NCBI GenBank assembly: GCA_016188295.1
Contig: JACPIA010000011.1
Span: forward strand, 3,993 to 67,992
Length of the DNA: 64,000 nucleotides
Reading direction: 5' to 3'
DNA from: Candidatus Vogelbacteria bacterium
GTDB lineage: Bacteria; Patescibacteriota; Minisyncoccia; Phycocordibacterales; XYD1-FULL-46-19
Below are positions 9,916 through 29,433 of the stretch, piece by piece. Position 1 is the first letter of the stretch. Each line of letters opens with the position of its first letter. The translations under genes and the position numbers were made by a program. The notes under the pieces were generated by a model. It was not told the DNA's origin and made no database searches. It saw only the letters and a program-made list of their open reading frames with translations.

Positions 9916-12417
9916 ATGTTTAAACGTTTTAGTTTAAAGGAGAAAATAGCTACTTTGGTTAGTATCGCCCTTTTTAGCGGTGGTGCTTTATTTATTTGGG
10001 CCAGCACCCTCCCTTTACCTGATTTTAATAATTTTTTTGAGGAGCGGACTGTTAACCAATCAACTAAGATTTACGACCGAACCGGCACAGTCTTGCTTTA
10101 CGACATCCACGGTGATGTTAAGCGCCGAGTGGTCCCTTTTGATCAAATAGCTCCGGCGATCAAACAAGCAACCATTGCGATCGAAGACGACCAATTTTAT
10201 CAACATATCGGCATTAGGCCACTCTCGATTATCCGCGCTTTAATTGCTGATTTGGCTTCCGGTTCACTCCACCAAGGTGGTTCGACTATTACTCAACAAG
10301 TAGTTAAAAATACCTTATTGGTCCAAGATAAGCGGTGGTCGCGTAAAATTAAAGAGTTGATTTTATCGCTCAAACTAGAACGCTCAATGAGCAAAGATGA
10401 TATTTTATCTTTGTATTTAAATGAAAGCCCGTATGGCGGTAATATTTACGGCGTTGAGGAAGCGGTTCAAAATTTTTTTAAAAAAAAAGCTAGTGAAGTT
10501 ACTTTAACCGAAGCGGCTTATTTAGCGGCCTTACCTCAAGCCCCTACCTATTACTCCCCATTTGGTAATAATTTTGATAAATTAGAAGCTCGAAAAAATA
10601 TTGTTTTAAAAAGAATGAAGGATTTAGGTTATATCACTATTGAGCAATATAACCAAGCGTTGACTGAAAAAGTAAAATTTAATCAGCCGGAAGAAAAAGG
10701 GATCAAAGCACCTCATTTTGTTTTTTACATTAAAGCTTATTTAGAGGAGAAATATGGCCAAGAAGCGGTTGAGAATCAAGGTTTTAAAGTCATCACCACC
10801 CTTGATTGGGACTTACAAAAAAAAGCTGATGCGGTGGTGGCTAAATATGGTGCCGAGAATGCTCAAAAATATAACGCCAAAAACGCCGGTTTGGTGGCAA
10901 TTGACCCCCGCTCGGGCCAAATTTTAACTATGGTTGGTTCCCGTGATTATTTTGATACTGCTAATCAAGGCAACTTTAACACTGTTCTAGCTCATCGCCA
11001 GCCTGGTTCCGCTTTTAAGCCTTTTGTTTACGCCACCGCCCTGATCAAAGGCTATACTCCTAATACTGTGGTATTTGATTTACCAACTGAATTTAACACC
11101 GGCTGTACCCCCGATGGTTTACCAGCTAGCTCCAATATTAAACCTGAGGAGTGTTATATGCCGGTTAACTATGATAATACTTACCTGGGACCAATTAGCT
11201 TCCGTGATGCTCTAGCTCAATCGCGAAACATCCCTGCTGTTAAAGTACTTTATTTAGCGGGAATTAAAGCTTCGATTAAAACCGCTCAGGCGATGGGAAT
11301 TACTAGTCTTACGGATCCTAGTCGTTATGGCTTAACTTTAGTTTTGGGTGGTGGCGAAGTTACCCCTCTAGAATTAACTAGTGCTTATGGTGTTTTTGCT
11401 AATAATGGCGTCCGTTACCCTCCTGCTGGAATCTTAAAAATCGAAGATTTAAATGGTCAAGTTTTAGAAGAATACCAAGAAAAACCGCAGACTGTAATAT
11501 CCTCGGATATTACCAGCCAAATTTCCAGTATTTTATCTGATAATGTCGCCCGAACACCAGCTTTTAGTGCTACCTCTCCAATGTATTTCCCTGGTCGAGA
11601 AGTAGCCGCTAAAACCGGTACTACTAACGACTACAAAGATGCTTGGATTGTTGGTTACACCCCCAGTATCGCGGTTGGTGCATGGGTAGGTAATAATGAT
11701 AATAGTCCAATGGAGAAAAAAGTGGCTGGTTTTATTGTGGCTCCAATGTGGAACGAATTTATGAATTTTTATTTAGCGGGAGCACCCAACGAAACCTTTC
11801 CCATTCCACCCAAAATCAATACTAAATTAAAGCCGGTTTTGCGTGGTATTTGGCAAGGTAATCAAATTTACACTATCGATAGTGTCTCTAAACAATTAGC
11901 CACCCCAGATACCCCAGAAGCTGCCAGACAAGATTTAGCTGTTTATAATATACATTCCATCTTGTATTGGGTTAATAAAAATGATCCAACTGGTCCAGTG
12001 CCAAGTAACCCTAGTAATGATCCTCAATTTAATTTATGGGAGACGCCAGTACGCCGTTTTGTAGCCAAACAAGGTATTAAAGAAAATGAAACCAGTTTTA
12101 TTCCTACTAAATATGATCCAATTCATAAACCAGGAATTGGACCTAAATTAACTATTATTTCTCCGACCCCTAACTCGACTATTCCAATCACTGATACTTT
12201 ACTAGTTAATCTACAAATTGAATCATTATTTCCCATCCAAGAAACGATTATCTATATTAATAACCAATTAGTAGTCAGTAATAAAACTAGTCTGACTTAT
12301 TTTGCAATTCCACTTCACTCAATTACCACCACTAAAACTAATCAATTAAGAGTGGTAGTTAGTGATAGTATTAAAAATCAAACCGAACAAATAGTGGAAT
12401 TTAATTTAAATGAGTAG
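9916..12417 (+). CDS. Class A penicillin-binding protein (glycosyltransferase GT51 plus transpeptidase), PBP1A-like
   Basis: GT51 motifs (IAIEDDQFYQHIGI, RQPGSAFKPF). The transpeptidase SxxK motif (SAFK) precedes the KTGT motif (AAKTGTTN). Confidence 0.9.
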   Translation: MFKRFSLKEKIATLVSIALFSGGALFIWASTLPLPDFNNFFEERTVNQSTKIYDRTGTVLLYDIHGDVKRRVVPFDQIAPAIKQATIAIEDDQFYQHIGIRPLSIIRALIADLASGSLHQGGSTITQQVVKNTLLVQDKRWSRKIKELILSLKLERSMSKDDILSLYLNESPYGGNIYGVEEAVQNFFKKKASEVTLTEAAYLAALPQAPTYYSPFGNNFDKLEARKNIVLKRMKDLGYITIEQYNQALTEKVKFNQPEEKGIKAPHFVFYIKAYLEEKYGQEAVENQGFKVITTLDWDLQKKADAVVAKYGAENAQKYNAKNAGLVAIDPRSGQILTMVGSRDYFDTANQGNFNTVLAHRQPGSAFKPFVYATALIKGYTPNTVVFDLPTEFNTGCTPDGLPASSNIKPEECYMPVNYDNTYLGPISFRDALAQSRNIPAVKVLYLAGIKASIKTAQAMGITSLTDPSRYGLTLVLGGGEVTPLELTSAYGVFANNGVRYPPAGILKIEDLNGQVLEEYQEKPQTVISSDITSQISSILSDNVARTPAFSATSPMYFPGREVAAKTGTTNDYKDAWIVGYTPSIAVGAWVGNNDNSPMEKKVAGFIVAPMWNEFMNFYLAGAPNETFPIPPKINTKLKPVLRGIWQGNQIYTIDSVSKQLATPDTPEAARQDLAVYNIHSILYWVNKNDPTGPVPSNPSNDPQFNLWETPVRRFVAKQGIKENETSFIPTKYDPIHKPGIGPKLTIISPTPNSTIPITDTLLVNLQIESLFPIQETIIYINNQLVVSNKTSLTYFAIPLHSITTTKTNQLRVVVSDSIKNQTEQIVEFNLNE

Positions 12418-12680
12418 TTTATTTAATATTAATTATTTTTATTTTAGTTTGTTGTTGATTAATAAAATTTAATAATTTTTGTTTATTAATTATTAAATCA
12501 CTTTTAAACACTGGGTTAAGTTTAATAAATAACACTTTATTTTGTAAAGAAATATTCTTAGTTAAGATTAATTCTTTATATTTTATAAAAATAAACTTTA
12601 TCACCAACTCTTTCACCATCCGTTCAGGATTTGTAAATTTATCTAATAAACCCAATAAACTACTTATTTTTTTAATAATT

Positions 12681-13781
12681 TTAACGATTAACCGGCATTA
12701 CTAAATATTTAAACAACTTATTACCCACTCCTGAAATTAATAATGGTTTATTAACACCTGATGATTTAAGTTCTATCCGCTCAGCATCTAAAGAATTAAA
12801 AGACTCAGTTAAATATCGCGCATTTACTTTTACCTCTATCTCCTCTCCATTAGATTCATTATTAATTGAAGTGGTAGTTTGGCCGATATCTTGATTAATC
12901 GCTGACACTTCACATATTTTATTTTTAGGATTAATTAATAAATTAACATGATGAAATTTGTCAGCAAAAATTGTCGATACTTTAAGTGCTTCTGTTAACT
13001 CTAATTGAGAAATTAAAACGGTGGTTGAAAAGTTTTTTGGTATAATCTGACGATAGTCTGGGTATACCCCATCAATAATCCTTGAGGTAATTAAAAAACT
13101 AGAGTGATAAAGAGATAATTGGTTTTTATCAACCTTAATTACTATTTCCCCTTTAGCCCCTTCTATTACTCGACTAATATCATTAACATTTTTAATTGGA
13201 ATAATAATCGATGGTGTTTCATTAATTAAAGTTAAGGGGATTTTTTTCTCCGCTAATCTAAAAGAATCTGTGGAAACAAATACTAAATACTCCCCATCAT
13301 GATATAAATACACACTCGCAATCTCTGGTTTAATATCGGAGGTAGCTGAAGCATAAACTACTGATTTTAAACCAAGTAAAAATAAACTAATTGGTAAGGA
13401 AAAATTCACTCCATCAATCACTTGTGGGATAGTTGGAAAATCATCCGGTAAAAATCCTTTAATTTTAGAGTGGTGATTAAAAGTATCCACCAACACTATC
13501 CCATCCTTTAATTCAAAAGTAATAATCTCTGTTGGTGGAATAGTCCCTAATACTCCCGCAATTAATTGAGCTGGTAAACAAATTGAACCATTTTTACTAT
13601 CAAATACTGTTAAATAAAATTCCACTCCTACTTCCAAATTAGTTACCTTTAAAGTTAGTTTATTATCTTTAATTAAAAAGAAAATCGTATTAAGTATCGG
13701 TAAGGAAGAATTTTTACCAGCAATTTTTTCAATCAGTAAAATAATATTTTTTATTTCTTTGTAATTACAGGAGAATTTCAT
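12681..13781 (-). CDS. dnaN: DNA polymerase III beta sliding clamp
   Basis: 366 aa. Sits downstream of dnaA. N-terminal pattern typical of DnaN. Confidence 0.85.
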   Translation of the reverse strand: MKFSCNYKEIKNIILLIEKIAGKNSSLPILNTIFFLIKDNKLTLKVTNLEVGVEFYLTVFDSKNGSICLPAQLIAGVLGTIPPTEIITFELKDGIVLVDTFNHHSKIKGFLPDDFPTIPQVIDGVNFSLPISLFLLGLKSVVYASATSDIKPEIASVYLYHDGEYLVFVSTDSFRLAEKKIPLTLINETPSIIIPIKNVNDISRVIEGAKGEIVIKVDKNQLSLYHSSFLITSRIIDGVYPDYRQIIPKNFSTTVLISQLELTEALKVSTIFADKFHHVNLLINPKNKICEVSAINQDIGQTTTSINNESNGEEIEVKVNARYLTESFNSLDAERIELKSSGVNKPLLISGVGNKLFKYLVMPVNR

Positions 13782-13967
13782 AGTTATATTTTATATTTAA
13801 GATTTGTTATTACTATTATACTTGGGGAAAAGTGGATAACCCTTAAAAATACTTTTAAAACATAAGTTTTTATTTAAATTAATTGTGGATAATTTTAAAT
13901 AATTTTCCCCAGAAAAAATATTTTCTAAAAATAAATTAAAAATAATCATAAAGTTATCAATATAATA
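13782..13967. promoter_or_regulatory. Candidate oriC / DnaA-box cluster in the AT-rich dnaA-dnaN intergenic region
   Basis: Perfect DnaA box TGTGGATAA (13884-13892, reverse complement TTATCCACA) and near-consensus GTGGATAAC (13832-13840) in a strongly AT-rich spacer. Confidence 0.5.
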
Positions 13968-15947: not shown

Positions 15948-16638
15948 TAGTCTTTTGGTTACTCCGTTTTATAATATATTAATTATTTTGACGGGCATAA
16001 TCCCAGGGGCGGATATTGGAGTAGCGATCGTTATTTTAACTATTTTAGTTAAAATTCTTCTTTTGCCGTTATATCAACAATCACTTAAAACTCAAAAAGC
16101 TTTAAAGAAGATTGAGCCGGAATTAACTCAAATCAAAGAGAAATATAAAGACAATAAAGTTGAGCAAACTCGTTTAATTTTAGAGTTATACCAAAAATAC
16201 CAAATTCATCCCCTTTCTAGTGTCTTAATGGTTTTTATCCAAATACCGATTATTTTAGCTTTGTTTTTTGTCTTTCGTGATAGTTTGACGACCACTGGAC
16301 ACACTCTTTACTTTTTTGTGATTAAACCGGAGATTATCAGTACTCACTTTTTAGGTCTAATTGATATCACCACTAAAAGTGTATGGTTTGCCGGTTTAAC
16401 CGCTTTAACCCAAGGGATTTATTTATGGCAAACAGTCCCTAAGCCAGAAAAAAAGGAGTTAGGTCAATCATGGCAAAAAGACTTTCAACACGGGATGTCG
16501 CTCCAAATGCGCTATGGCGCGCCAGTTTTAATCTTTTTTGTTAGTTGGGGTTTTCCAATCGCTGTTTCACTTTACTGGATTACTAGTAATATATTTGCCT
16601 CCGGTTTTGAGTTGATTAAAAAACAGTTTGAAGATTAG
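15928..16638 (+). CDS. yidC: Membrane protein insertase YidC (short form)
   Basis: Multi-TM protein following rnpA. Conserved YidC/Oxa1 core. Confidence 0.85.
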   Translation: MISSLFNSLLVTPFYNILIILTGIIPGADIGVAIVILTILVKILLLPLYQQSLKTQKALKKIEPELTQIKEKYKDNKVEQTRLILELYQKYQIHPLSSVLMVFIQIPIILALFFVFRDSLTTTGHTLYFFVIKPEIISTHFLGLIDITTKSVWFAGLTALTQGIYLWQTVPKPEKKELGQSWQKDFQHGMSLQMRYGAPVLIFFVSWGFPIAVSLYWITSNIFASGFELIKKQFED

Positions 16639-17851
16639 CTCGCCATAATTTAGCATCGGATTTATTGATAAAATAAAGATATTTTTTACTTTGATCTAGG
16701 AAGGGGCTAATGCCATCAATAGTCAAGTTTAGACTGGTCGGATTAATTAAAATATCACTGTTACCGCTAGTAATATTTATAGCTTGCAGATTGTCACTAA
16801 AGGTAATCAAGCCTTGATACCAGCTCTCAGGGTAGTTGTTGGTTGGAATGATTTGAGGGATAAAACACCAAATAGTATCTCCTTTAGGCCAAAAACATTT
16901 CTCGGGTAAGGTGATACTCGCTAAAACCACTACTTGTTTGGTTACTAAATTAAATAAATAAGTGGAAATAGAGCCAAAACGAGCGGTATTGTAAATAAAA
17001 CGTTCACCATTAAGCTCAGGACTTAAACTAATACCCGTTGAATTACCGACTAAACGCTCAAGGGTTTTAGTTTTTAAATTTAGACTATAAACCACACTCG
17101 GCATTGAGGAATCTGCTTTGGTCGCTAAGTACAAATTATCAACACTACCCCACCAGACGCGCCAGTCCGGGTAATTTGAGGTCCAAACTAGGGCGCGGCT
17201 GGTACCATCGGGTTTGCTAACATAACCAGCCACCTTGGTACCATTTTGCTCTAAGCTGAAGATGGTTTTGTGATCAGGAGCAGGTGTAATACTATTGATA
17301 TTATTAGCTAATTTAATTGAATTAGTAGTAGGTTCGGTACTAGTAGCGAATAAATCTTTGTTATTAATAACTACTCGGTACCAACCATTATTAGTTTCTT
17401 GACTAGTTTGAATATAAAAATAAGTGTGGTTGGTATTTTGGGCCCAAGTGGCCGTAATGGCTGGGGCTAAGGTGGCGGCGCTTAAGCGGGTGACCTCGCC
17501 TGTAAGAGGATTTAAACGGTAAATGTGACCGGTGGCGCGCTCAATATAAACAATATTAGAACTGGTGCCGGTGTTAATCCAATCAGCAAAAGCGATTGGT
17601 TCCTTAGTGATAACACTCAAAGCTTGGTCCGGTTGATTATTAGTGTTGCTAAATAAATCACCGGTATCAGTTTGATTCACTACCGAGTCGATAAAATTAG
17701 AGACGGTATTGCCAGCCCGCGGAAAAAAAGTTTGGCTGATGGGTATCGGAGTACCATCAACAGCGATAGTACCAAACCAACCTCTCCCCCACCATAAGAT
17801 GCCTAAAGTGATTAAAAGTGAGATTAAAATAATGATTAGTATTTTTTTCAT
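16616..17851 (-). CDS. Secreted/anchored beta-propeller-like protein (hypothetical); last gene of the T4SS-like operon
   Basis: N-terminal signal anchor MKKILIIILISLLITLGILWW. Repetitive beta-rich sequence. Its 3' end overlaps yidC convergently. Confidence 0.5.
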   Translation of the reverse strand: MKKILIIILISLLITLGILWWGRGWFGTIAVDGTPIPISQTFFPRAGNTVSNFIDSVVNQTDTGDLFSNTNNQPDQALSVITKEPIAFADWINTGTSSNIVYIERATGHIYRLNPLTGEVTRLSAATLAPAITATWAQNTNHTYFYIQTSQETNNGWYRVVINNKDLFATSTEPTTNSIKLANNINSITPAPDHKTIFSLEQNGTKVAGYVSKPDGTSRALVWTSNYPDWRVWWGSVDNLYLATKADSSMPSVVYSLNLKTKTLERLVGNSTGISLSPELNGERFIYNTARFGSISTYLFNLVTKQVVVLASITLPEKCFWPKGDTIWCFIPQIIPTNNYPESWYQGLITFSDNLQAINITSGNSDILINPTSLNLTIDGISPFLDQSKKYLYFINKSDAKLWRANLQTVF

Positions 17852-17858
17852 AGACTAA

Positions 17859-18884
17859 CTAAAAATGATTTTTAAAGGAATTAATATCATTTCTAAGGGG
17901 ATTGGTTAGTGCTTCGATATGATAATGAGGGCCACTACCACCATATTGTCCTCGAGTTTCGTCTAATACTGTAATTGAGTCTCTGGAAAAACCATAACGA
18001 TTACGAAAATCAGTTTGATTTAAATTTTGATAATCTTGATAGAATCGGATTCCCGCATCATTGCTCCGAATATCAATTGCATATCCATTATAATGACTAC
18101 TACCTCCGCTATGGCCAGTTACTTCTGATCCGCCAGTAATTACTAATGATTCACTGACTCCATTATTTTGTAGGCCTAAATTTATCCCATTAGCCACCCA
18201 GACCGTTTCATTAGTCCACCCGCCAACACAAGTGGTCGGACAAGGATTGTTGATCATTACTCCATTTGGTCCCAAAACATCACTTCTAATCACACTTTCT
18301 CGCTGGTTGACATCCGTTAGGTTATTAACCTTAGCAACTTGCTCGAATATTTTTTGAGGGACACCAGTAAAATCAGATGTTACCGCATTGATTGGCGTTA
18401 TGGTGTGATTAGGGTCATTGCCATTATTGGTACCGGTGTTGTATCCTAGTCCGCCACTACCGGAACCACCAAAAGTGCCGGTAGTGGCGGGGGTGCGAGT
18501 AATAGTAAAATTAAAATCCAGTAATTTAGGATTGATAGTGTAAAGGAGGGTGTAAGCGCCAATAGCGATCGCCAAGCCCCATAGAGCATTAGTCCACATA
18601 CTCTCAGCCTCGGAGAGGGCACCCGGAGCGTAGCTAACAATGTAATACACCCCACTTAAGACCAACATAAATATTGCCAAACTAACAGCAACCACGAAGG
18701 CCATATTAAATAATTCTTTAGCATAAGTGACAAAATCAATCGCCACATTATTTTCAGTTCGGCCTATTATTTGCGGTTCAAGTAAAATATAGTCGGAGTT
18801 TTGAGCTAAGACGGTTACGCTTTGACTGGTGGTAATAATTAAAACTAGGCTACAGATGACGATTATTAGAAAGTGTTTAGTCAT
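17859..18884 (-). CDS. Membrane-anchored peptidoglycan peptidase (M15/VanY-like C-terminal domain) with signal peptide and two TM helices; candidate T4SS-associated cell-wall hydrolase
   Basis: Signal peptide plus two hydrophobic helices. The C-terminal domain has SxHxxGxAxD (SGGSSHYNGYAIDI) and a His motif (GPHYHIE), as in M15 zinc peptidases. Confidence 0.5.
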   Translation of the reverse strand: MTKHFLIIVICSLVLIITTSQSVTVLAQNSDYILLEPQIIGRTENNVAIDFVTYAKELFNMAFVVAVSLAIFMLVLSGVYYIVSYAPGALSEAESMWTNALWGLAIAIGAYTLLYTINPKLLDFNFTITRTPATTGTFGGSGSGGLGYNTGTNNGNDPNHTITPINAVTSDFTGVPQKIFEQVAKVNNLTDVNQRESVIRSDVLGPNGVMINNPCPTTCVGGWTNETVWVANGINLGLQNNGVSESLVITGGSEVTGHSGGSSHYNGYAIDIRSNDAGIRFYQDYQNLNQTDFRNRYGFSRDSITVLDETRGQYGGSGPHYHIEALTNPLRNDINSFKNHF

Positions 18885-18887
18885 AGT

Positions 18888-20261
18888 TTAAAAATTATCA
18901 CTCAGATCACCTAAAGTGACGCCTAATAACATTTTAGCAGATTGAAAGAGGCTGTCGGGGTTGTTAATATGCACTTCTAAATTAGCCACACCAGTTGAAC
19001 GACTGTTCTCAACTCCTAAACTAGGGCGATTATTACCAATCATCTCACCATTGAGGAACCAATTGTAATTTAAACCACCATCAATCACTAAATTTTGAGG
19101 AAAAAAGTACGGTACCACCCTAATAATTGATTGATTTTTAGTGAGAGTAAAGTTGGTTTGGAGAGCTTGAGCGTAATTGGGCCCAGTCAAAGCGCTCTCT
19201 TCATAAAACAACAATCGGGGTTTAGTAATGGGAATTAAAATAGTGTTATTAGCTCGGAGACTGCCATCGCGGTTCTCGACTGACACTGTGATTTCTTTAG
19301 TTCCGCCAATTGGCGCCTTAAAAGTATAAGTATCTTTACCAAGACCAGAAGATAAAGTCATAGTTTTACCATCATCGCTCCAGTTATAAACTAATTCTGT
19401 GGGCGGTAATTGACGCTTAGTTCGATCAATTAAGATCGGTAGGGCGGTCACTTGGCCAACGGATTCCAAGCTAATTGGCTTACCACCTAAATAGCCAGGT
19501 GGAGTGTAAGTGTCACCACGCCAGATCAAATCTACCTGAGTCGGGATAATCGAGATCGTTACTGTTTTAGTCGAGCTATTAACTGGTATGATTTGAGCTT
19601 TAACTATTACTGGGACACCAATTTTACCGGTTGTCAGACTCAAATGAGAATCGTTATTATTCAGGATTTTTTTGCCATCAATTTGCCAATTAACCTGCGA
19701 ACGCTCAAGGTCAAAAGAGTAACTGGTTAAATCAATAGTGGTTTGGGTGGCTGGTCCGGGGTCACGTGGAGTAATTCGGATCGTTAAGTCCGGAGTGGTG
19801 ATGATATTAGAATCTGCTAACACACTACTAACAGGCAGTAAACAAAGTAAAACAATCGCCACTTTTTTGATAATTTCTCTACCAATCATTTTGAGTTTAA
19901 CTGGGATTCGATTAGTTGGGTTCGCTGGAGCGGGATTAGCTTTTTCTCGATCTTCTTGGTCGGCTTGACGGATGGTTAAGTAAGTGCCGATTAAAAACCA
20001 AGGTAAAAAATTTAATATCGGCACTGCTTCCGCGAACCATGTACCAACGGTTTTTTTAAGCTGTCTAGTGCCGAATAATTTAACACTATTAAGTAAACAG
20101 ATAGAGCCAAAAATTAGATAATAAATTACAGATACCACAGTATTAATTATAGTACCAATCACCAATAACAGTAAAATAATTTGAATAATATCAGCCAAAG
20201 TCGCCACGGTGTAAAGAGTTATTCGGGTTAGCAAACTTAAACGATATTGAACCGGAGACAT
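18888..20261 (-). CDS. Membrane protein with N-terminal TM helices and extracellular beta-rich (Ig-like) region; hypothetical T4SS component
   Basis: 457 aa with N-terminal hydrophobic helices. The remainder is predicted extracytoplasmic. In the operon between the VirB4 genes and the hydrolase. Confidence 0.45.
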   Translation of the reverse strand: MSPVQYRLSLLTRITLYTVATLADIIQIILLLLVIGTIINTVVSVIYYLIFGSICLLNSVKLFGTRQLKKTVGTWFAEAVPILNFLPWFLIGTYLTIRQADQEDREKANPAPANPTNRIPVKLKMIGREIIKKVAIVLLCLLPVSSVLADSNIITTPDLTIRITPRDPGPATQTTIDLTSYSFDLERSQVNWQIDGKKILNNNDSHLSLTTGKIGVPVIVKAQIIPVNSSTKTVTISIIPTQVDLIWRGDTYTPPGYLGGKPISLESVGQVTALPILIDRTKRQLPPTELVYNWSDDGKTMTLSSGLGKDTYTFKAPIGGTKEITVSVENRDGSLRANNTILIPITKPRLLFYEESALTGPNYAQALQTNFTLTKNQSIIRVVPYFFPQNLVIDGGLNYNWFLNGEMIGNNRPSLGVENSRSTGVANLEVHINNPDSLFQSAKMLLGVTLGDLSDNF

Positions 20262-20266
20262 AATAT

Positions 20267-22078
20267 TTACTGGCTGGTGGCTAAATCAACCTTTGATTGT
20301 TTGATCGCTAAGAGTTGTGACGGGTCCGAGGTGATGATCTGATCTTCGGTATAGGAGGCAATAATCTTAATGGCTACGTGTTTGAGGCCGGCAAAAAAAA
20401 TTCCTTCTCCCACATTAGACTCTAAGAGCAAGAATTTTTCCTCATCGGTTAAATTAAAAGTTTTTTGGACTAAATCAATGGAAGCTGGTGATTGCTTCAG
20501 TAATAATTGGATCGAAGAGTTAGTGATAATCGGTAAGCCATAAGGTGATTTAAGGAAGTCACCGACATCTTGAGTAATAGTAGCAATCCCTAAATAGTAT
20601 TTACGTCCGCGTTTAACCAAGGAAAAAAGGAACGAAGCGGTATCCTCCGTCTTCATCATCCACCATGCCTCGTCCACCACCATTAAGCGCTTTTTCAGAT
20701 TGCGACGGACGGCATTCCAAATATGATGCATCACCACATACATGGCTACTGGTTTAAGTTCATCCTCCATGTCTCGCACCGAGAAGACGACAAACTTTTT
20801 ATTAATATCCACATTGGTCGGCCGATTAATAAAACCAGACCATGAGCCTTGAGTGTATTTGAGCAAGCGTTGGGCCAACGATTCCCCGCCTTCCATTCCC
20901 GCAAGCACCAGCTCCAAGTCAGACAATAGCGGGGCTGGCTTGTTTGAAAAATCAGTATCCGGAGTAATATCTTTAAGGGCGTAAGTCTCACTAATAGCAC
21001 TATCAATAATCGAATCTTCTTCCGGAGTCAGGCCACCCAACATAATCCGGAACAAGCCCACTAAGTTGATAATATTGGAGCGCAAAATATCGGCTGGCGA
21101 TTCATCATCACGAGGGATCGGTAAATCAAACGGATTGATATGGTGCTCGGAAGTAAGTGAAATATTAAAATAACGTCCACCGACCGCCTCGCTTAAAAAC
21201 TCATACTCCCGCTCGGGATCGATGACAATCACATCAGTTTCAAACATTAAACTGCGCAAAATCTCAAGTTTAGTAGTGTAGGATTTACCGGCGCCCGATT
21301 TGGCAAAAATGACCGAGTTATAGTTTTCCAGTGAAAAACGATCAAACAAGACCAGCGAAGCGTTGTGACGATTAACGCCATAGAGAATCCCTTGATTAGA
21401 AGTAAGATCAAAAGAAATAAACGGGAACAGACTGGAAAGAGGTGACGAATTTAATTTGGAATTGATATTAAGCAAATCAAGACCAAGAGGAACCACACTC
21501 TTAAAACCATCTTCTTGTCGGAGAAAAGCCGGCTTTAAGTAAATTAATTTAGAATCTAAAATCGATTTAATGGTATTTTCCGTTTTAGATAATTCTTCCT
21601 CGGTATCCTCATAAATAGTGATGTAGAGACCCACGGAAAAAAGTTTTTCCCGAGCTTGTTGGAGTTGGTCGCGCAGGCTCTCGATGTCGCGATAAGCGAC
21701 ATCGAGTACGGGATCACGAACCAACCCCTTTTCTTCTCTAATCTGGACTTGACTTTGGACTTCAGCCACTTTTCTTTGTAAGTTGCGCAAAGCGCCAGCG
21801 GTATCGATCGGATGGACATAAATCGAGACATCAAACACTTTATCAAGATTGATGATTGGTGAAAACCAACCTTCACTTAAAAAGCGCGGGTATGAGATGA
21901 CAAAAAACGTACGCGCCACCTTTTCCCCCAAGTTAATGCTTTGGGAACTAATTTGCAGTGCCGCCGGAGCGATAATATCTTTTAACTCTAAGATCCCAGC
22001 CTGATATACATCGGCCGGTAAAATTGGTAAGACCGAGGTGTCGGTAACCGAGTTTAAAGTTTTTCTAAATAAAGCCAT
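20267..22078 (-). CDS. VirB4/TrbE-family T4SS ATPase, C-terminal ATPase part (split gene)
   Basis: Walker A AKSGAGKSY and Walker B MVVDEAWWMM (the DEAW motif typical of VirB4). 603 aa. Begins 6 nt after the stop of the upstream N-terminal part. Confidence 0.75.
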   Translation of the reverse strand: MALFRKTLNSVTDTSVLPILPADVYQAGILELKDIIAPAALQISSQSINLGEKVARTFFVISYPRFLSEGWFSPIINLDKVFDVSIYVHPIDTAGALRNLQRKVAEVQSQVQIREEKGLVRDPVLDVAYRDIESLRDQLQQAREKLFSVGLYITIYEDTEEELSKTENTIKSILDSKLIYLKPAFLRQEDGFKSVVPLGLDLLNINSKLNSSPLSSLFPFISFDLTSNQGILYGVNRHNASLVLFDRFSLENYNSVIFAKSGAGKSYTTKLEILRSLMFETDVIVIDPEREYEFLSEAVGGRYFNISLTSEHHINPFDLPIPRDDESPADILRSNIINLVGLFRIMLGGLTPEEDSIIDSAISETYALKDITPDTDFSNKPAPLLSDLELVLAGMEGGESLAQRLLKYTQGSWSGFINRPTNVDINKKFVVFSVRDMEDELKPVAMYVVMHHIWNAVRRNLKKRLMVVDEAWWMMKTEDTASFLFSLVKRGRKYYLGIATITQDVGDFLKSPYGLPIITNSSIQLLLKQSPASIDLVQKTFNLTDEEKFLLLESNVGEGIFFAGLKHVAIKIIASYTEDQIITSDPSQLLAIKQSKVDLATSQ

Positions 22079-22084
22079 ATCTTA

Positions 22085-22708
22085 TTATACCGTCTCAGGG
22101 ATATTAACCTCGCCGGGATTAAAAGCCTTGAAGTAAAGCTCGACCAGTTCTTCGGTGCCCAAAAGCTCGACGCGGACCCCCAAGCGTCCCAAACCTTGAC
22201 GGACTACGTCGACTCTCTGCTCTAATTGATTGCGCTCCTCTTCAAACGCCAGGGTCTCCACCGTCTTAGCTGGTTGGCGTTTGAATAATTTAATCCACCA
22301 GCCTTGGCGATTTTGAATAATCGGTGGAGTGTAAGGGATGACCACAAAAAAACTTTTGGTCATAATATTATTATTCTCGGTAAAACTTTTAATAAATTCG
22401 ATATACTCTTGTGTCTGGACTTTAAGCAAGTCATTGGTTTGGCTTTTTAAGCGTTCTTCTAAAATACTGATGTAGGGGCGGATATCTAATCGGCGCGATT
22501 GAACAAATATTTGCAAGTAAAAATCCAGCGAATTAAGAAAGTTTTGGTATTGGAGCAATAGGCCTTGTTGTTCGTCACGGGACTTTAAAGCAAAATTAAT
22601 AGATGAGGCAATAAGTACAGCCCGTAGCGATCCATCTTTTAGTACCACGACGCCGTCGCGGACTTCTTCGATAGGGACAAATGATTGAGTGCTTTTAGGA
22701 GTGGTCAT
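22085..22708 (-). CDS. VirB4-family ATPase, N-terminal part (split gene)
   Basis: 207 aa. The N-terminal region VPIEEVRDGVVVLKDGSLRAVL resembles the VirB4 N-terminus. Ends with tandem stops TAA TAA. Combined with the next ORF it is about 810 aa, a typical VirB4 length. Confidence 0.6.
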   Translation of the reverse strand: MTTPKSTQSFVPIEEVRDGVVVLKDGSLRAVLIASSINFALKSRDEQQGLLLQYQNFLNSLDFYLQIFVQSRRLDIRPYISILEERLKSQTNDLLKVQTQEYIEFIKSFTENNNIMTKSFFVVIPYTPPIIQNRQGWWIKLFKRQPAKTVETLAFEEERNQLEQRVDVVRQGLGRLGVRVELLGTEELVELYFKAFNPGEVNIPETV

Positions 22709-22712
22709 ATTA

Positions 22713-23114
22713 TTATTTAATCTTTTCCGTGATATCCAAACTCCAAGCTAAGTCGTGTAATTTGCTTTTTGATAATTTAGGGATGGTGGGCGCTAGTGGT
22801 TTAGTAGTTATTTGAGACGTTATTGTTTTGGGCGCCTCTTTTTTCCAGATGTAATTTTTACGAGCCAAGGCAAAATAGAGACCAGCTTCGAGTATCGCAA
22901 TGAAGGGCTGGTTATTGTACTTAAAAAAAGCCAGCGCCAGCCCTAGTCCGGCCACTGCCAGCATCGGGATAATTTTAATCGCAAAAGGTAAGGGTAAAGT
23001 ATAAACCAAAAAGGCCAATCCTCCCCCACCAGTCAAATAGATAAATTGTTTAAAAGTAAGGGGGCCAAAGACCTGATCCTCGACCTCGATAAATTGTGGG
23101 ACTTGAAAGTTCAT
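22713..23114 (-). CDS. VirB3-like small two-TM membrane protein
   Basis: 133 aa, two hydrophobic helices, immediately upstream of VirB4 as in T4SS loci. Confidence 0.4.
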   Translation of the reverse strand: MNFQVPQFIEVEDQVFGPLTFKQFIYLTGGGGLAFLVYTLPLPFAIKIIPMLAVAGLGLALAFFKYNNQPFIAILEAGLYFALARKNYIWKKEAPKTITSQITTKPLAPTIPKLSKSKLHDLAWSLDITEKIK

Positions 23115-23569: not shown

Positions 23570-26524
23570 TTACATTATTAATCCAGTAGTCTGGTCAACA
23601 TAAGCCGGGTTATTTATAAATTGATCAAATTGACCATTAACATTAGCGCGCAGAGGAGCGGTCTGGTTTATTGCCGCTCTTTGTAATTCTTGTTTAATCC
23701 GCAATATCACATCACCATTCATTTTGCGGCCAATATTTTTAAAGTCATCAATCGACAAGCCCGCTTGGTCAATCTTAGTTAACATTTGCGCGTTCTGAGT
23801 AAATAAGTTAACTGCTTCTGATTTATTGCCAGACACTAGGTTTGGTAGATGATCATTAATCGCTCCAACTAAAGTTTGTCGATCAGCGGTAGTGGCTTGA
23901 GCAATACTTCTTAATTCGGACAATGCTTGCTGAACTTGCGCTGGAGTAATTGGTGGAGTTTGGCCACTAGTCTGATTACTTCCCCCGGCACGATCGCTAC
24001 CATCTCTAATTGGAGTGGTATTAGTATTACCGATTTGATTAGTGTTACCAGTCGGATTAGTTTCTGTTGTTTGTGTAGTTGAAGTTGGTTTAGGAATACC
24101 CCAACTGGCTCTAGTGTTGCCGGCTCCAATTTCCTGATAAAGGGCATTATTTTGGTTTTGGATATAGTTACGCATCTGTTCCAATTGACTATGGTTGAGC
24201 TTATCACGAATGGCATTAATCTCACTGTAGTTTAGGGATTTTGCAACCACTGGATTAATTAGCGTGTCGATCTTAAAGTCTTTAAGATCGTTATTATTAA
24301 AGCCAGCCAAGGTCTCATTAACCGCTTTTTCGGTGGCATCAATTTTATCTTGAGTGGCCTTGTTGGCAACATTTTTACCATTTACCTTAACAACATTACC
24401 ACTGCTATCTTTTGCGTGTTCGTCTTTAATATTTCCTGCTTCATCAAATAGATCATTTACTGATTTAGTGGCGTTTTCAATAGTTTTGCCCGCTTTATCA
24501 ATTTTATCTTTTTTATCTTTCTTCTTCTTGTCCTCCTCCTCTTTTTCAACGTCTTTTAATTTTTTAGCATCTTCCGCCCGCTCTTTACCCGCTTTGCCTA
24601 AAAAGCCAATCCCTAAACCACTAGTAGTAGCAACAGTGTCGCTCGCATAACGAAGAGGGTGTAATATATTTTCCTTGATTGGTTTGGTGGTAGAAATAAC
24701 TTTTTTACCTAGATCGGTTTTAGCCAAATAATCACCGACTGGTTTTATTTTTTTATACGTTGTATCCACTAGTCGACCACCCGCTCCCCCAAGGAATGTT
24801 TTATCAGTTTTTGAGGCGACCGCACCAATTGCTCGGCCACCATAACCACCTGTTTTTCTAATCGTACCCCAGGCGGCCCCAGCACCCAAAGCGGTGATTC
24901 CCCCTGCTAGTGCCATGGCGCCAGTCGCGCCAATACCACCAATCTTTTTGGCAATGACTAGTGAATAGACCATAAAGCCGATTAAAATGATATAAGCAAT
25001 CAAGAGACGGAAAAAATCAAAACTAACACTACCAGTGCCATCAGCATCAACACGGGGCGCGCCTGTATTACTAATTGTAATAGCTTGAGCAATTTGAATG
25101 GTGATATAAAACATAATCATAAACACCGGCAACCAGACCGTTTCAGAAATTAACTTGTTCCACCAACCACCAGTTTCTTTTTTAAGAAAGTCTGGTAAAA
25201 TCATCGAACCAAAGGCAATTGGTGAGGTCATGATTAACATCAACAGGGTGATAATTCTCACTATCAACATAAAAGCCACCGTTAATAATACAAAGGCGGC
25301 TACTAACACTAGAATAATCTGCACAAATGAATCAAAAATGATCCGATAAGCTTCATATCGGCTAGTATTTTCATTTAGTCCAAATTGATTATTGGTATCG
25401 CCATTATAATCATTAAGACCCAGTGGCATTTTATCGATTAGTGCTCTAACTAAGTCAGGAGCCTTGGTAATGCTGGTATTGTTTGTTTGGCCGTTGATCG
25501 GAGTCATTCCACGATAAAAGGTTACCGATATCACATTGGTGGCATCAATGATTATTTTAGGGAAAATGGCGCTGAAGTTGATCAGCAGAGCGGCAATAAT
25601 GATATTAGTGATCATTTTTTTAGCATTAACTTCCGATCGGCGTAAAATGGTGCCAATGGCCACGTAAAGTAAAATAAAAATAAAAGCGATATTAAACAAA
25701 TCACGAATGATGGTCCAACCGATATTGATCGCGGTACCCAATGGGAAATATAATTTGTCACTGTTTCCTCCGGAAGTTTTAAGATACTCATGAAAATCTA
25801 TCACTGATAATTTTAATATGGCGTTAAATAATTCATTGGCCAAATACAGGATCCAAGCAAAAACAGATAAAACTATACGCATTAGGTAAGCCGTACCATA
25901 GAGTAGACAATCTTGGATCGTCCAACTAAGTATTCCGGAACACCGAAGCATATTATCCTTATTCCGGATCTCGGTTTCGTGATCACTAATACTACTAGTA
26001 AGGGTAGTCTGGTGATTAGTGGCAATTTGACGCTCGTTTTCCAAGAATCGTATTTGATTTTGCAGATACTCATTTTCTACCGCATCTTCGCTAGTCGATA
26101 AATCTAAACCAATTTGTTGATCCCTTAAGTTTTGGATTTGTTCGTCATAATTAGCCCATCCAACATAATCTCTGATTGCGTCTCTTTGGCGATAAAAGTT
26201 ACTGATGCCAGCACTGGTTGGGTATTTTTCATTAAGCCAATTATTAAAACTAGTGATAGTTTGACGAGAGCAACCATCCCGCCCAGTGTTTTGAGTGTCC
26301 CGACAAAATCTATCTAAATAATCTCGCCCATAATCTTGCCCAACCACCTGACTAGTGGTGTAATCGATCATTCCAGTACCACCTTGAGCATAAATAATTT
26401 GTGGTAGAGTTATTAAAAACAACACCATCAACAACCGTAATAACTGGCTATTTTTAATAGTAAAAAACTCTTTCATCTTACAATAGTAGTTTCGACTTCG
26501 GCGGATTGGGTACCGTTGGTGCAA
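23570..26524 (-). CDS. VirB6/TrbL-like polytopic membrane protein with long low-complexity C-terminal tail
   Basis: 984 aa. Signal peptide, about 200-aa extracytoplasmic domain, many TM helices, then an about 400-aa G/K/D/E/T/N-rich tail. Confidence 0.45.
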   Translation of the reverse strand: MHQRYPIRRSRNYYCKMKEFFTIKNSQLLRLLMVLFLITLPQIIYAQGGTGMIDYTTSQVVGQDYGRDYLDRFCRDTQNTGRDGCSRQTITSFNNWLNEKYPTSAGISNFYRQRDAIRDYVGWANYDEQIQNLRDQQIGLDLSTSEDAVENEYLQNQIRFLENERQIATNHQTTLTSSISDHETEIRNKDNMLRCSGILSWTIQDCLLYGTAYLMRIVLSVFAWILYLANELFNAILKLSVIDFHEYLKTSGGNSDKLYFPLGTAINIGWTIIRDLFNIAFIFILLYVAIGTILRRSEVNAKKMITNIIIAALLINFSAIFPKIIIDATNVISVTFYRGMTPINGQTNNTSITKAPDLVRALIDKMPLGLNDYNGDTNNQFGLNENTSRYEAYRIIFDSFVQIILVLVAAFVLLTVAFMLIVRIITLLMLIMTSPIAFGSMILPDFLKKETGGWWNKLISETVWLPVFMIMFYITIQIAQAITISNTGAPRVDADGTGSVSFDFFRLLIAYIILIGFMVYSLVIAKKIGGIGATGAMALAGGITALGAGAAWGTIRKTGGYGGRAIGAVASKTDKTFLGGAGGRLVDTTYKKIKPVGDYLAKTDLGKKVISTTKPIKENILHPLRYASDTVATTSGLGIGFLGKAGKERAEDAKKLKDVEKEEEDKKKKDKKDKIDKAGKTIENATKSVNDLFDEAGNIKDEHAKDSSGNVVKVNGKNVANKATQDKIDATEKAVNETLAGFNNNDLKDFKIDTLINPVVAKSLNYSEINAIRDKLNHSQLEQMRNYIQNQNNALYQEIGAGNTRASWGIPKPTSTTQTTETNPTGNTNQIGNTNTTPIRDGSDRAGGSNQTSGQTPPITPAQVQQALSELRSIAQATTADRQTLVGAINDHLPNLVSGNKSEAVNLFTQNAQMLTKIDQAGLSIDDFKNIGRKMNGDVILRIKQELQRAAINQTAPLRANVNGQFDQFINNPAYVDQTTGLIM

Positions 26525-29433
26525 CGGAGACGATACACTGGCGGTGCGGTGGTAATATCAATTTGACCAGTGCCAATCGAGGTTAATGAGGTGTAAGTAA
26601 AGCGGTACAAAGCAAAAGTGGGGTTGGCGCCAATTGCCGCTTTTAGTTTATCAATCATTGTGCTTACAGTATCGTTCTCGGCAACAGTGACACTAACACT
26701 GCTCGGAGTGCCACCGGCCGCCAGTTTAATAGTTATGACATCTCCCGTCACAATATCACTAGTCTGTAATGCCAAAGAGGCATTACCCCTTAGGCGATCA
26801 CCACTAATGCTTGGGGCAATAGTTAAATTAGACTCAGTTGTGTTTCGGGTTCGGGTAAAAGCGACCTCAAAAGTAAAAGGGAATTTAATACTCAATGAGC
26901 CATAGCGTTCAACTTCTTCACCACTGCGTTTAAGGACTTGGAGCGTGCCAGTGGCGCTTCCGGCCGAGAGCCAAGGATTGCCGGCCACACAACTGTCACC
27001 AATGATTAGCGACCAGTTGATTGTGGCGGTATTAGGCGCTGTACCGTTGGTAATATTACCTAAACTAGGTGAGGTAAAACGGATGCGAGCGGTGGGAGGA
27101 ATCAGGTTTAATAAATCACCAGGGTTGATATTAGGTAAATTACCACCCAGATTCGAACCACCATTGCCACCACCGAGGTGGAAGAAATTAATTAGGCCAT
27201 TGGCACGAGAGGCCCCCGGAGCGTTGAGAGTTTGGATGAGTTCAGTATTTGGTTCGGCGCCTTTAACTAAGTCGGTTTGTTCATCAACGCTGACTAATTT
27301 TTCAATCCGAGCTTCGTTAACCGACTCTAAATTAGCGCCAATAATTCGACCCGGGGTAACGGTGATCCATTTTACACAATTATTCTCTTGGTCGTACTTG
27401 TTACACTCTTTTTTAGGGGCAATACCTTGGCCGGCCAAGTATTCATCACGGGCATTTTGCTCGGCCGCCGCTTGACGCTGGCTTTGGATTGCTAAATTGT
27501 TTAACAGCGAGGAACTCGGATTGTTATTTTTAGTAAAATCGTGGAATTTGAGAAAGCGATCCCAAAAGGTTGCGGAGTCAAGCTGGTCCGGATTATTGAT
27601 TAGTTCTTGATATTCACTTCGACTTAAAGTTGATTGGTAAGGGTCATTCAACTCATCACCCTTTAGCGTTTTAAGGGTCTGTTTGCGAAAGGTGTCGCTC
27701 GAGCGTTCCAATTCAGCTAAGCCGATTTTCATAGCCTCCTCGCGCGCCTCCCTCACATAAGTGGCCGGATCTTTAACTAATTCATTTTTCTTAATAAAAT
27801 TAACCACTTGATTACCAATTTTATCGAGATTTTTAGCTGACTGTTCCGAAGCTTTGCGATCATCCACTAATTCTTTTTTCTGCATATCGGCGGCGATTTT
27901 TTTAGCTGTCTCGGTATCGGCACAATTTTTGTTTTCGAGATCTCTGATTTTTTTAGTATCGATACTGATGCCACTCTGATCATTAACCAATGCGTCCGTC
28001 GGTACTCGGGCGAATGGTAGAATGTTTATTACTTGATCAATTGCACCATTAACAAAATCATTTACTCGTTGAGTAATACGATTGGAGAGTTCGGTGATGG
28101 GACTTAATACTCGATCCATCATATCGCTTAAACCATCAGCAAAGGGTTGGACCACACTATCAACCAAGCCATCCATAGCGGAGGTAAAGGGCTCGGTAAT
28201 GCTATTAACTAAGCCACCAGTGATTGCTACGATCGGTTCAGTTATTAAATTGACCATACCGCCAATCGCGGCGTTTATTGGGTTAGCGACGGCCGAGAGG
28301 GCGGTGGTCATCGTATCGGAGACCGCTTGGGAGATTGGAGCACTAATTTGAGCCACTACTTCATTAATAGTGTTGTCCAAGCTGGTTAAGGCGATATCGG
28401 AGAGTTCGTCACCCAAGTCGGCCAGCTCATCGCTTAGCGAATCTGCCAATTGATTGCTAGCCGAATTTATTGATTCTCTAAATTCTTGTTGAGAAAAAAT
28501 GATGTTTAATTGCTGGGACAAAATATCCTCCATTTGGCCGGCGATTTCATTGCTAAATTGACCAAACATCGGATTATTTTCAATAGAATCTCCGATTAAG
28601 TTAATTGATCCGTTTAATAATTCATCTCGGAATTGTCCGGCATTGCCTATTAAAATACCTAATTGATTGCGACCTTGAGCTGAAAGAGGTTCGTCATTCA
28701 AATCATCAATGGTGTCGTCAATAGCATCATTAAACTCATCTAACAATTCACCACGAATGTCGGTCGTTAAACCACTGTTCGGATCACGCAGGGCTCCTTG
28801 CAAGATACCTGGTCCCAAGGTACGGAAGTCGTTACTTAAAACTCGCGGTAATTCTCGTTGTAGGCCGTTAAGCAAAATAATCGGTAACTGTTGTTGAATA
28901 ATCGCTCTAATAATGTCTGGGCCAATGTCTTGCGGATCAACCCCTTGATTAATTAAACCGGCAATTTGCGTGGTTAGTTCACGGGTAATACCCTCTGTCA
29001 CTACTTGATTAACCACATCAGGCATACGCTCATTTAAAATACCAGCAAATTGTTCCGGTAATTGCTCTAATAAAGCACCTTCGATAATTTCCGGTAAGCG
29101 CTCTTGGAGCACCCCTTGTAATTTACCAGCCAAACCATCAAAATATTTACTACCCTGACATTTTTGTTTGTCTTTACTGCGATTTTGCTGGAGCTGGCTG
29201 GAGGCTTGATTGCTACCGCTGTTGTAATTATCGGGAACCAATTCCCGATCCTGATTAGGATCGCCATCATAGGTGATATTGTCTCCAGTAACGGTATTAT
29301 TCCAAACACCAGAATCTTCAGTTTCTACAAACACTGCCGCTTGAGTAATGACTGGCAACAAATTTACTACCAACAACAGCCAAGCGATATTAAATTTAAT
29401 TTTGTGAGGTTGAAGTGGCATAAGTAGTATCAT
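26473..29433 (-). CDS. Large secreted repeat protein (986 aa), candidate surface/adhesin component of the T4SS-like locus
   Basis: Signal peptide (LLLVVNLLPVITQAAVF). Internal degenerate repeats (GxVNxITEPxxxA). Overlaps neighbours by 52 nt and 38 nt. Confidence 0.5.
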   Translation of the reverse strand: MILLMPLQPHKIKFNIAWLLLVVNLLPVITQAAVFVETEDSGVWNNTVTGDNITYDGDPNQDRELVPDNYNSGSNQASSQLQQNRSKDKQKCQGSKYFDGLAGKLQGVLQERLPEIIEGALLEQLPEQFAGILNERMPDVVNQVVTEGITRELTTQIAGLINQGVDPQDIGPDIIRAIIQQQLPIILLNGLQRELPRVLSNDFRTLGPGILQGALRDPNSGLTTDIRGELLDEFNDAIDDTIDDLNDEPLSAQGRNQLGILIGNAGQFRDELLNGSINLIGDSIENNPMFGQFSNEIAGQMEDILSQQLNIIFSQQEFRESINSASNQLADSLSDELADLGDELSDIALTSLDNTINEVVAQISAPISQAVSDTMTTALSAVANPINAAIGGMVNLITEPIVAITGGLVNSITEPFTSAMDGLVDSVVQPFADGLSDMMDRVLSPITELSNRITQRVNDFVNGAIDQVINILPFARVPTDALVNDQSGISIDTKKIRDLENKNCADTETAKKIAADMQKKELVDDRKASEQSAKNLDKIGNQVVNFIKKNELVKDPATYVREAREEAMKIGLAELERSSDTFRKQTLKTLKGDELNDPYQSTLSRSEYQELINNPDQLDSATFWDRFLKFHDFTKNNNPSSSLLNNLAIQSQRQAAAEQNARDEYLAGQGIAPKKECNKYDQENNCVKWITVTPGRIIGANLESVNEARIEKLVSVDEQTDLVKGAEPNTELIQTLNAPGASRANGLINFFHLGGGNGGSNLGGNLPNINPGDLLNLIPPTARIRFTSPSLGNITNGTAPNTATINWSLIIGDSCVAGNPWLSAGSATGTLQVLKRSGEEVERYGSLSIKFPFTFEVAFTRTRNTTESNLTIAPSISGDRLRGNASLALQTSDIVTGDVITIKLAAGGTPSSVSVTVAENDTVSTMIDKLKAAIGANPTFALYRFTYTSLTSIGTGQIDITTAPPVYRLRCTNGTQSAEVETTIVR

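Follow-up and report, generated by a model that had tools for sequence, protein, structure and literature searches.

The locus described here lies in a stretch of 64,000 nucleotides (the window) from contig JACPIA010000011.1 of a Candidatus Vogelbacteria metagenome-assembled genome (MAG); this lineage of ultrasmall bacteria (Candidate Phyla Radiation) belongs to the Patescibacteria/Parcubacteria group and is placed in the Paceibacteria by the literature. On its minus strand, in an operon of type IV secretion system (T4SS) genes, the window carries a gene for a 341-residue protein that joins a VirB2-like pilin module, a linker and a predicted LAS-type zinc peptidase domain in one chain. The product is 100% identical to the NCBI entry 'hypothetical protein HYV76_02945', and its ATG sits one codon past the stop of the upstream gene. 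The open reading frame (ORF) falls into three parts, namely a signal peptide with a hydrophobic hairpin, a Gly/Ser/Thr/Asn linker and a C-terminal domain (C-domain) with H258, H264-x6-D271, E309 and H320-x-H322.

17859..18884, minus strand: fusion gene, stop codon included (ORF); 341 amino acids (aa), pilin-like module plus linker plus LAS peptidase
18804..18884, minus strand: signal peptide, aa 1-27 (MTKH, a hydrophobic core, then VLA before QN), from hydropathy; probable cleavage after A27 by the -3/-1 rule
18510..18803, minus strand: VirB2/T4SS_pilin-like module, aa 28-125, from hhalign to PF18895-positive proteins and sub-threshold PF18895 matches of the query and close homologues
18630-18719, minus strand: helix 1 of the pilin module, aa 56-85
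aa 86-96, minus strand: short loop between the two helices
18534-18596, minus strand: helix 2 of the pilin module, aa 97-117, ending TINPxLL
18378..18509, minus strand: linker, aa 126-169 (about 44 aa), Gly/Ser/Thr/Asn-rich and predicted to be disordered (pLDDT, the predicted local distance difference test, <50 in both models)
17862..18377, minus strand: predicted C-terminal LAS (Hedgehog/DD-peptidase, M15A-like) zinc-peptidase domain, aa 170-341, from the AlphaFold2 (AF2) model, Foldseek and profile comparison with the PDB
18072..18113, minus strand: motif 1, H258-x5-H264-x6-D271 (GHSGGSSHYNGYAID), aligned column for column with GHHSEESLHYEGRAVD of Sonic hedgehog (Shh)
17958..17960, minus strand: E309, which closes strand ITVLD-E and may be the general base, conserved in 11/13 family members; probable counterpart of Shh E177
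17919..17927, minus strand: motif 2, H320-Y-H322 (H-x-H), candidate third Zn ligand and catalytic His, from conservation and its place in the last beta-strand of the model

That the fusion arose from misassembly or a frameshift was rejected, since the same architecture is found in at least five independent assemblies; pilin and LAS domains are joined in this way in P0002, P0013, P0014 and P0015.

The pilin-like module and the C-terminal domain

A preliminary description of this DNA had read the N-terminus as a cleavable-looking signal peptide followed by two hydrophobic helices reminiscent of VirB2/TrbC pilins, and our data bear this out. On the Kyte-Doolittle scale (19-residue averaging) residues 1-27 and 55-87 exceed 1.6, while a third segment (97-117) is weaker and stays under that cutoff. 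Two long helices (51-83 and 87-117) also appear in a low-confidence full-length AF2 model, which was built from a three-sequence alignment and is unusable with its pLDDT of 38.7. Hydropathy and model together thus give the query the layout of VirB2/TrbC pilins: a signal peptide and two hydrophobic helices with a short connecting loop. A DYxLLEP motif is conserved within the module (aa 28-125).

The closest homologues (P0002, P0003) score below threshold with Pfam T4SS_pilin (PF18895; 17.1 and 16.5 bits, E 0.006 and 0.009), whereas three more distant proteins of the same overall architecture (P0013-15) lie above its gathering score (34.7-39.3 bits vs 26.6). P0013 also touches the TrbC/VirB2 model, and P0014 touches the 'pilin-like conjugal transfer protein' model of a mycoplasma integrative and conjugative element. 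The N-terminal profile of the query group aligns with that of P0013-15 end to end (hhalign 99%, E 7.9e-18, 133 columns), a match that takes in DYxLLxP past the signal peptide and TINPxLL at the end of helix 2. Because of this alignment with PF18895-positive proteins, we take the N-terminal module, as judged by its profile, to be a diverged VirB2-like T4SS pilin domain. A word-indexed search for homologues of the first 130 aa, a comparison of the N-terminal profile with the PDB and a metagenome scan with the pilin profile all came back empty. After signal-peptide cleavage both hairpin ends should face outward, which would place linker and enzyme outside the membrane.

With the VirB2-like pilins described from Patescibacteria (PF18895; arrays in Saccharimonadia and Microgenomatia) the module shares the signal peptide, a two-helix hairpin ending INPxL and the proximity to virB4. 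In published Patescibacteria genome tables a PF18895 VirB2 gene likewise lies two genes after virB4. The described pilins, however, are reported to be small and often come as arrays of 2-11 paralogues, while the fusion gene is single-copy and adds a linker plus enzyme that together span 215 aa. So the protein, of whose 341 aa about 215 come after the hairpin, differs from VirB2 pilins in that it is no hairpin-only small protein.

As for the C-domain, the SxHxxGxAxD motif and the downstream His motif named in the preliminary description are both present (S262-S-H264-Y-N-G-Y-A-I-D271 and H320-Y-H322). Across 13 aligned family members that share 27-63% identity, H264, D271 and H320 never vary, and for this reason the motif goes beyond chance. 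At least 90% of these members also have H258 and H322, and E309 is present in 11 of them. Between the Glu and H-x-H there is an insertion that varies from 0 to 14 residues across the family (8 in the window protein). A Cys pair (C215/C219) is conserved, which fits an extracytoplasmic location.

An AF2 model of the C-domain from the 13-sequence alignment is of much better quality (pLDDT 87.2; predicted template modelling score, pTM, 0.87) than the full-length one. Its elements run from strand LVIT and strand AIDIR through two helices to strand ITVLD-E309 and strand H320-Y-H322-IEA, and this is the same order as in ShhN, which we take to be KLRVTEG, RAVDIT, helix, VYYE177S and H181-I-H183. For the second half of the domain, strand order in the model would make E309 the counterpart of Shh E177, and H-x-H that of Shh H181/H183. 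Foldseek against the PDB put Hedgehog N-domains on ranks 1-31 (probability about 1, template modelling (TM) scores 0.40-0.53), followed by 1lbu (a Zn DD-peptidase of Streptomyces albus), VldE (a pneumococcal endopeptidase) and MepA. Among the predicted viral structures of BFVD it matched a Hedgehog-like microvirus protein along with several tape-measure proteins and proteins labelled 'Peptidase M15A C-terminal', 'Murein endopeptidase K' or 'cell wall hydrolase'.

Consistent with this, the 13-sequence family profile searched against the PDB hit the N-domains of Sonic, Indian and Desert hedgehog first (Shh E 1.4e-3) and then the VanY-type carboxypeptidase YodJ (E 0.044). Here GHSGGSSHYNGYAID aligns over Shh GHHSEESLHYEGRAVD, placing H264 and D271 onto the Zn ligands H141 and D148, and H258 onto the second His of the Shh 'GHH', six residues ahead of H141 (H135; Shh numbering from PMC6027127). 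As modelled, the C-domain has a LAS fold. It carries the H-x6-D / H-x-H pair of motifs by which Hedgehog/DD-peptidases are defined (PMC6027127), is of the M15A kind and not of the VanY kind, and falls into no curated family. The M15-type peptidase assignment of the preliminary description is therefore supported, with the subfamily corrected: of the two findings that together were to refute it, a lack of M15/VanY profile hits and an unrelated fold, only the first was made, as structure prediction returned a LAS fold, while the VanY/L-Ala-D-Glu peptidase signature did not hold. At profile level, membership in the VanY, VanX and L-Ala-D-Glu peptidase families was rejected. A VanY-type E-x-x-H occurs only within the D-E-x-x-H-x-H of some family members.

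The sub-threshold signals of the C-domain all come from one superfamily (VanY E 0.043-0.13, Peptidase_M15_4 E 0.02, HH_signal E 0.027-0.07). The query scores 12.4 bits with VanY (PF02557; cutoff 25) and its close homologue P0002 13.3 bits with HH_signal (cutoff 22.1); the best E-values among family members are 0.043 for VanY, 0.02 for M15_4 (PF13539) and 0.027 for HH_signal (PF01085). With Hedgehog/DD-peptidases (1lbu, bacterial Hh-like proteins, ShhN; MEROPS M15A-like), its best structural and profile matches, the C-domain has in common H-x6-D plus H-x-H, a His six residues before the first ligand, probably a Glu ending the strand before H-x-H, and the strand/helix order. It differs from them in its low similarity (about 20% identity, TM 0.4-0.5, bit scores that fall short of the HH_signal and M15 gathering cutoffs), in an extra helical N-terminal subdomain that bears the conserved Cys pair, and in the variable insertion between Glu and H-x-H. 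MepA/M74, VldE, M15B enzymes of the YodJ/VanY kind and the M15A domains of phage virions and endolysins share the superfamily fold and the logic of the metal site, but rank lower than Hedgehog.

The C-domain family is rare: when 1.84 billion representative proteins were scanned exhaustively with HMMER, 14 came out at E <=1e-3. One of these, P0009, was discarded as a false positive due to fn3 repeats. A word-indexed search with the C-domain alignment returned only P0012, a metagenome scan with the C-domain profile only the contig of P0015, and a scan of viral contigs gave no match. A search of genome collections brought up one locus (L005), coding for a 630-aa protein on a Phascolarctobacterium MAG contig. 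This protein (L005:3113-5005, plus strand) has the motifs GH..SSHYTGYAIDF and GHIH mid-protein, its neighbours are without obvious family, and it may belong to a phage or mobile element. In other family members the domain is joined to an SLT lytic transglycosylase (P0006, P0008, P0010, P0011) or to PG_binding_1 (P0005). The same rare domain occurs in giant proteins of 1,446-2,180 aa (P0008, P0011, P0018-P0020, P0022), which may be surface or injection-type wall-degrading proteins; in the two that were scanned (P0008, P0011) the SLT domain comes after the LAS domain.

The T4SS operon and a probable exchange of the enzymatic domain

Ten ORFs on the same strand follow one another with at most small gaps or overlaps (29396-30112 down to 16616-17851); the fusion gene is number nine in this series, which includes the following.

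22713..23114, minus strand: PrgI (VirB3-like), PF12666 1.2e-9
22085..22708, minus strand: separate VirB4 N-terminal domain / TrsD-like protein, 207 aa, NCBIfam TrsD 6.1e-7 plus VirB4 models
20267..22078, minus strand: VirB4-like ATPase, two genes upstream of the fusion gene in the same operon, P-loop_TraG 3.4e-25 and AAA_10
18888..20261, minus strand: conserved 457-aa membrane protein of no known family, directly upstream of the fusion gene (3-nt gap)
16616..17851, minus strand: conserved 411-aa N-terminally anchored protein of no known family, directly downstream (7-nt gap)

The product of 22085-22708 matches only the N-terminal ~120-150 residues of VirB4 models, plus the TrsD/TraD family, and since it covers just this part VirB4 is split over two genes here; its orthologue in locus L001 is TraC-like. 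The T4SS linkage proposed in the preliminary description is thus upheld: the fusion gene shares its operon with virB4, a trsD-like gene and prgI, and its position is syntenically conserved. The order prgI, trsD-like, virB4, the upstream gene, fusion gene, 411-aa gene and yidC/rnpA recurs in three syntenic Patescibacteria contigs (L001 with P0002, L003 with P0003, L006 with P0015), where rpmH and dnaA follow as far as the contigs extend. P0002 is 58% identical to the window protein, and around P0015 synteny is kept at just 34% C-domain identity. In L006 the upstream gene is apparently split into ORFs of 141 aa and 329 aa. Neither of the flanking 411-aa and 457-aa proteins matched a Pfam or NCBIfam family; both are membrane-anchored and kept in all syntenic loci, and we take them for probable, as yet uncharacterised parts of the T4SS in this lineage. 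In the window the T4SS cluster abuts yidC, rnpA, dnaA and dnaN, an origin-proximal setting that has been described for Paceibacteria T4SS loci (PMC12102498).

P0003 (L003:1570-2505) is the syntenic orthologue of the fusion gene; the gene upstream of it is 64% identical, and the gene downstream 65%, to its counterpart in the window. Over pilin module and linker P0003 shares 65% identity with the window protein as far as aa 156, with no similarity beyond. The replacement domain gives sub-threshold signals for CHAP (Pfam E 0.0015) and for a phage endolysin PHROG (E 0.005), and holds a Cys (ACAAT) and, further on, a GHVG His as expected for a CHAP-type cysteine peptidase; P0003 had no match in the PDB. 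From sequence comparison this looks like a cassette-like exchange of wall-hydrolase domains with its breakpoint in the linker. Because L003 keeps the flanks and the pilin module and swaps LAS for a CHAP/endolysin-like domain, what the slot conserves is pilin module, linker and some wall hydrolase. To our minds, nothing argues more strongly than this probable swap for a LAS domain that works on peptidoglycan on behalf of the T4SS.

That the organism makes peptidoglycan follows from genes for a class A penicillin-binding protein (PBP), an Amidase_3 protein and alanine racemase in the window.

A candidate wall hydrolase of the T4SS and its alternatives

Taken together, we are confident that the gene combines a VirB2-like module with a LAS zinc-peptidase fold in a T4SS operon. 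As to what the product does, we lean with modest confidence towards a pilin-tethered functional analogue of VirB1 that would cut the cell's own wall for the T4SS. It would be a Sec-exported membrane protein with two T4SS functions in one chain, in which the VirB2-like hairpin, after signal-peptide cleavage, would lie in the cytoplasmic membrane with both ends outside and would dock or target the fusion protein to the T4SS apparatus whose genes share its operon. The linker, flexible and about 44 residues long, may then hold the LAS peptidase in the wall compartment, with H264, D271 and H322 as the putative metal site and E309, H258 and H320 as putative helpers in catalysis. There the peptidase would locally cut peptide stems or cross-links of the cell's own peptidoglycan and so open a gap for the T4SS channel or pilus, as VirB1-type hydrolases do elsewhere. 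The fusions of family members to SLT or PG_binding_1, the fold matches and the operon position all point to a wall-directed role of the C-domain; which bond is cut cannot be told from LAS-domain comparison.

VirB1-type hydrolases, to which CwlT of ICEBs1 also belongs, are modular with interchangeable wall-hydrolase domains and are presumed to open the wall locally for the channel, and in this the fusion protein is like them. Those of monoderm conjugative T4SSs (PrgK of pCF10, TraG of pIP501, Orf14 of Tn916) are likewise encoded in T4SS operons and membrane-tethered with the catalytic domain outside (PMC12857230; PMC12102498). The difference lies in the parts used. VirB1-type hydrolases carry SLT, muramidase, CHAP/NlpC-P60 or LytM (M23) domains behind a plain N-terminal transmembrane anchor, whereas the fusion protein has a Hedgehog/DD-peptidase-type LAS domain behind a VirB2-like one; SLT, muramidase, CHAP and LytM domains were not found in it with Pfam or NCBIfam. 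Wall hydrolases of monoderm T4SSs are well known, the listed domains being SLT, muramidase, CHAP and LytM with ordinary anchors (PMC12857230). A survey of 3,035 Patescibacteria genomes, in which VirB1 and VirB2 were searched separately, found VirB1 homologues rarely linked to virB4, the Paceibacteria excepted (PMC12102498). According to it VirB1 homologues are for the most part absent beside virB4 and virB2, and the majority of genomes with virB2 have no VirB1 hydrolase (PMC12102498). It mentions fusion for VirB3-VirB4 only and considers that pilus biogenesis may not need VirB1 (PMC12102498). Neither a pilin-hydrolase fusion nor an M15/Hedgehog-type T4SS hydrolase is described in the literature we searched (PF18895/T4SS_pilin; M15 with T4SS hydrolases), which is no proof of absence. 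What is new here, then, is an undescribed pilin-hydrolase fusion and an uncatalogued LAS subfamily; the function and the superfamilies are already known.

Our data suggest that in some lineages at least the VirB1 hydrolase is not missing but fused to a pilin and so diverged that existing profiles overlook it. To judge by the one species tested, Patescibacteria need their T4SS for epibiotic growth, and what the system does is not known (PMC10633639, PMC11665869). Against this background, the fusion protein would be a concrete candidate for how a monoderm, ultrasmall cell passes a T4SS through its wall. It may also represent a new rare branch of the Hedgehog/DD-peptidase superfamily with candidate catalytic residues defined, and an example of cassette-like wall-hydrolase exchange on a constant pilin scaffold.

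Several observations weigh against a VirB1-like role, or against the assignments it builds on. The query itself is insignificant with PF18895 (9.3 bits, E 1.6, cutoff 26.6), and the search with M15 models that the preliminary description had proposed brought no profile at threshold: the C-domain is without significant match in Pfam, NCBIfam and PHROGs, and no curated M15, VanY or Hedgehog profile reached its cutoff. Foldseek E-values are modest (7e-3 vs the PDB, 3.8e-5 vs BFVD) and TM scores in the PDB only 0.4-0.5. The H-x-H could not be aligned to Shh H181/H183, as HMMER matched the His-tag of 4c4m and hhalign covered motif 1 only, so that the role given to H-x-H rests on strand order in a predicted model. 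With an HMM of the pilin module no second pilin-like ORF was found in the window or in the related loci; the sole one may thus have to act as the true pilin, which a pure 'anchor' leaves unexplained. Finally, whether the cell's own wall or that of a host is the target cannot be told from sequence.

What makes an enzyme-armed pilus attractive is that no second pilin is seen. In this reading the pilin module would polymerise, or would cap a filament by being built in as its first subunit, and the peptidase, on the pilus or at its tip, would digest the host wall at contact as part of an epibiotic lifestyle. Not only is the fusion gene the sole VirB2-like ORF of the window and of the three syntenic loci, it also occupies the slot that stand-alone PF18895 pilins hold in other Patescibacteria. 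In VirB2/TraA-type pilins, moreover, both termini face the outside of the filament. The swap of catalytic domains between close lineages resembles the diversification expected of host-directed weapons, and T4SS pilins of Patescibacteria are essential for epibiotic growth of S. epibionticum (PMC10633639; PMC12857230). Yet we know of no evidence that pilins can assemble with ~20 kDa of C-terminal domain attached, further pilin genes may sit beyond the available sequence, the lineage has no known host, and a membrane-retained role fits the data equally well. We therefore regard an armed pilus as unlikely, and as somewhat less likely still its fuller version for Paceibacteria-type lineages, in which the only T4SS pilin bears an exchangeable wall-degrading enzyme, the pilus or its tip serves as an enzymatic drill through the host wall, and the LAS/CHAP cassette is matched to host wall chemistry.

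Alternatively, the chain could be a pro-protein whose linker is cleaved after export to yield a small pilin and a free secreted peptidase. All fusions have a long, disordered Gly/Ser/Thr-rich linker, and C-terminal processing of TrbC/VirB2 pilins is established for the RP4 and Ti systems. Shh-type domains have also been suggested to be involved in self-processing, and they show a 'cannibalistic' peptidase activity (PMC6027127). But the linkers differ among P0002, P0014, P0015 and the window protein with no conserved cleavage motif visible, and no maturation protease gene was recognised in the operon, all of which makes processing of this kind improbable to us.

More improbable yet is that the C-domain does not cleave at all and, as argued for Hedgehog, binds instead, tethering the T4SS or pilin to peptidoglycan or to a host surface glycan. 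While its nearest structural matches are indeed Hedgehog ligands, whose peptidase activity is debated, the catalytic set (both motif His, Asp, the Glu in 11/13, H258) is kept at ~30% identity and it is exactly these residues that pseudo-enzymes such as Drosophila Hh lose (PMC6027127); the syntenic replacement, too, is another type of hydrolase that keeps its candidate Cys/His pair. Hardly credible, finally, is a housekeeping DD-/LD-carboxypeptidase for general wall maturation that adjoins the T4SS by chance: M15 enzymes do include housekeeping carboxypeptidases and the locus adjoins dnaA, dnaN, yidC and a PBP gene on the chromosome, but at least five independent assemblies show it fused to a T4SS pilin module, the place in the virB4 operon is kept even at 34% domain identity, and such extreme rarity (14 representatives in 1.84 billion) is unlike a housekeeping enzyme.

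Some further features of the window may be recorded. At the head of the operon two ORFs of ~985 aa each (23570-26524 and 26473-29433, both minus strand) overlap by 52 nt; one of them, a polytopic 984-aa protein whose long tail is rich in Lys/Asp and in Thr/Asn/Gln, may be VirB6-like, and the other has a DUF445 match barely over the Pfam cutoff (35.7 vs 33.8 bits). Some 5.5 kb from the T4SS operon, beside a UvrD-type helicase, a VirD4-like coupling protein is encoded (T4SS-DNA_transf, E 1e-7; window 35606-37981, plus strand, and 33272-35161, minus strand). A wall amidase (Amidase_3 plus PG_binding_1; 2740-3771, minus strand) and a PilB-type T2SSE ATPase of a type IV pilus (5036-6784, plus strand) also lie in the window, so the genome has other wall-hydrolase and pilus systems. 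Between the PBP gene and dnaA, two very AT-rich intergenic stretches lie on either side of dnaN (12400-12699 and 13600-13899; GC 18% and 21%, the window having ~40%) and are probably origin-of-replication DNA.

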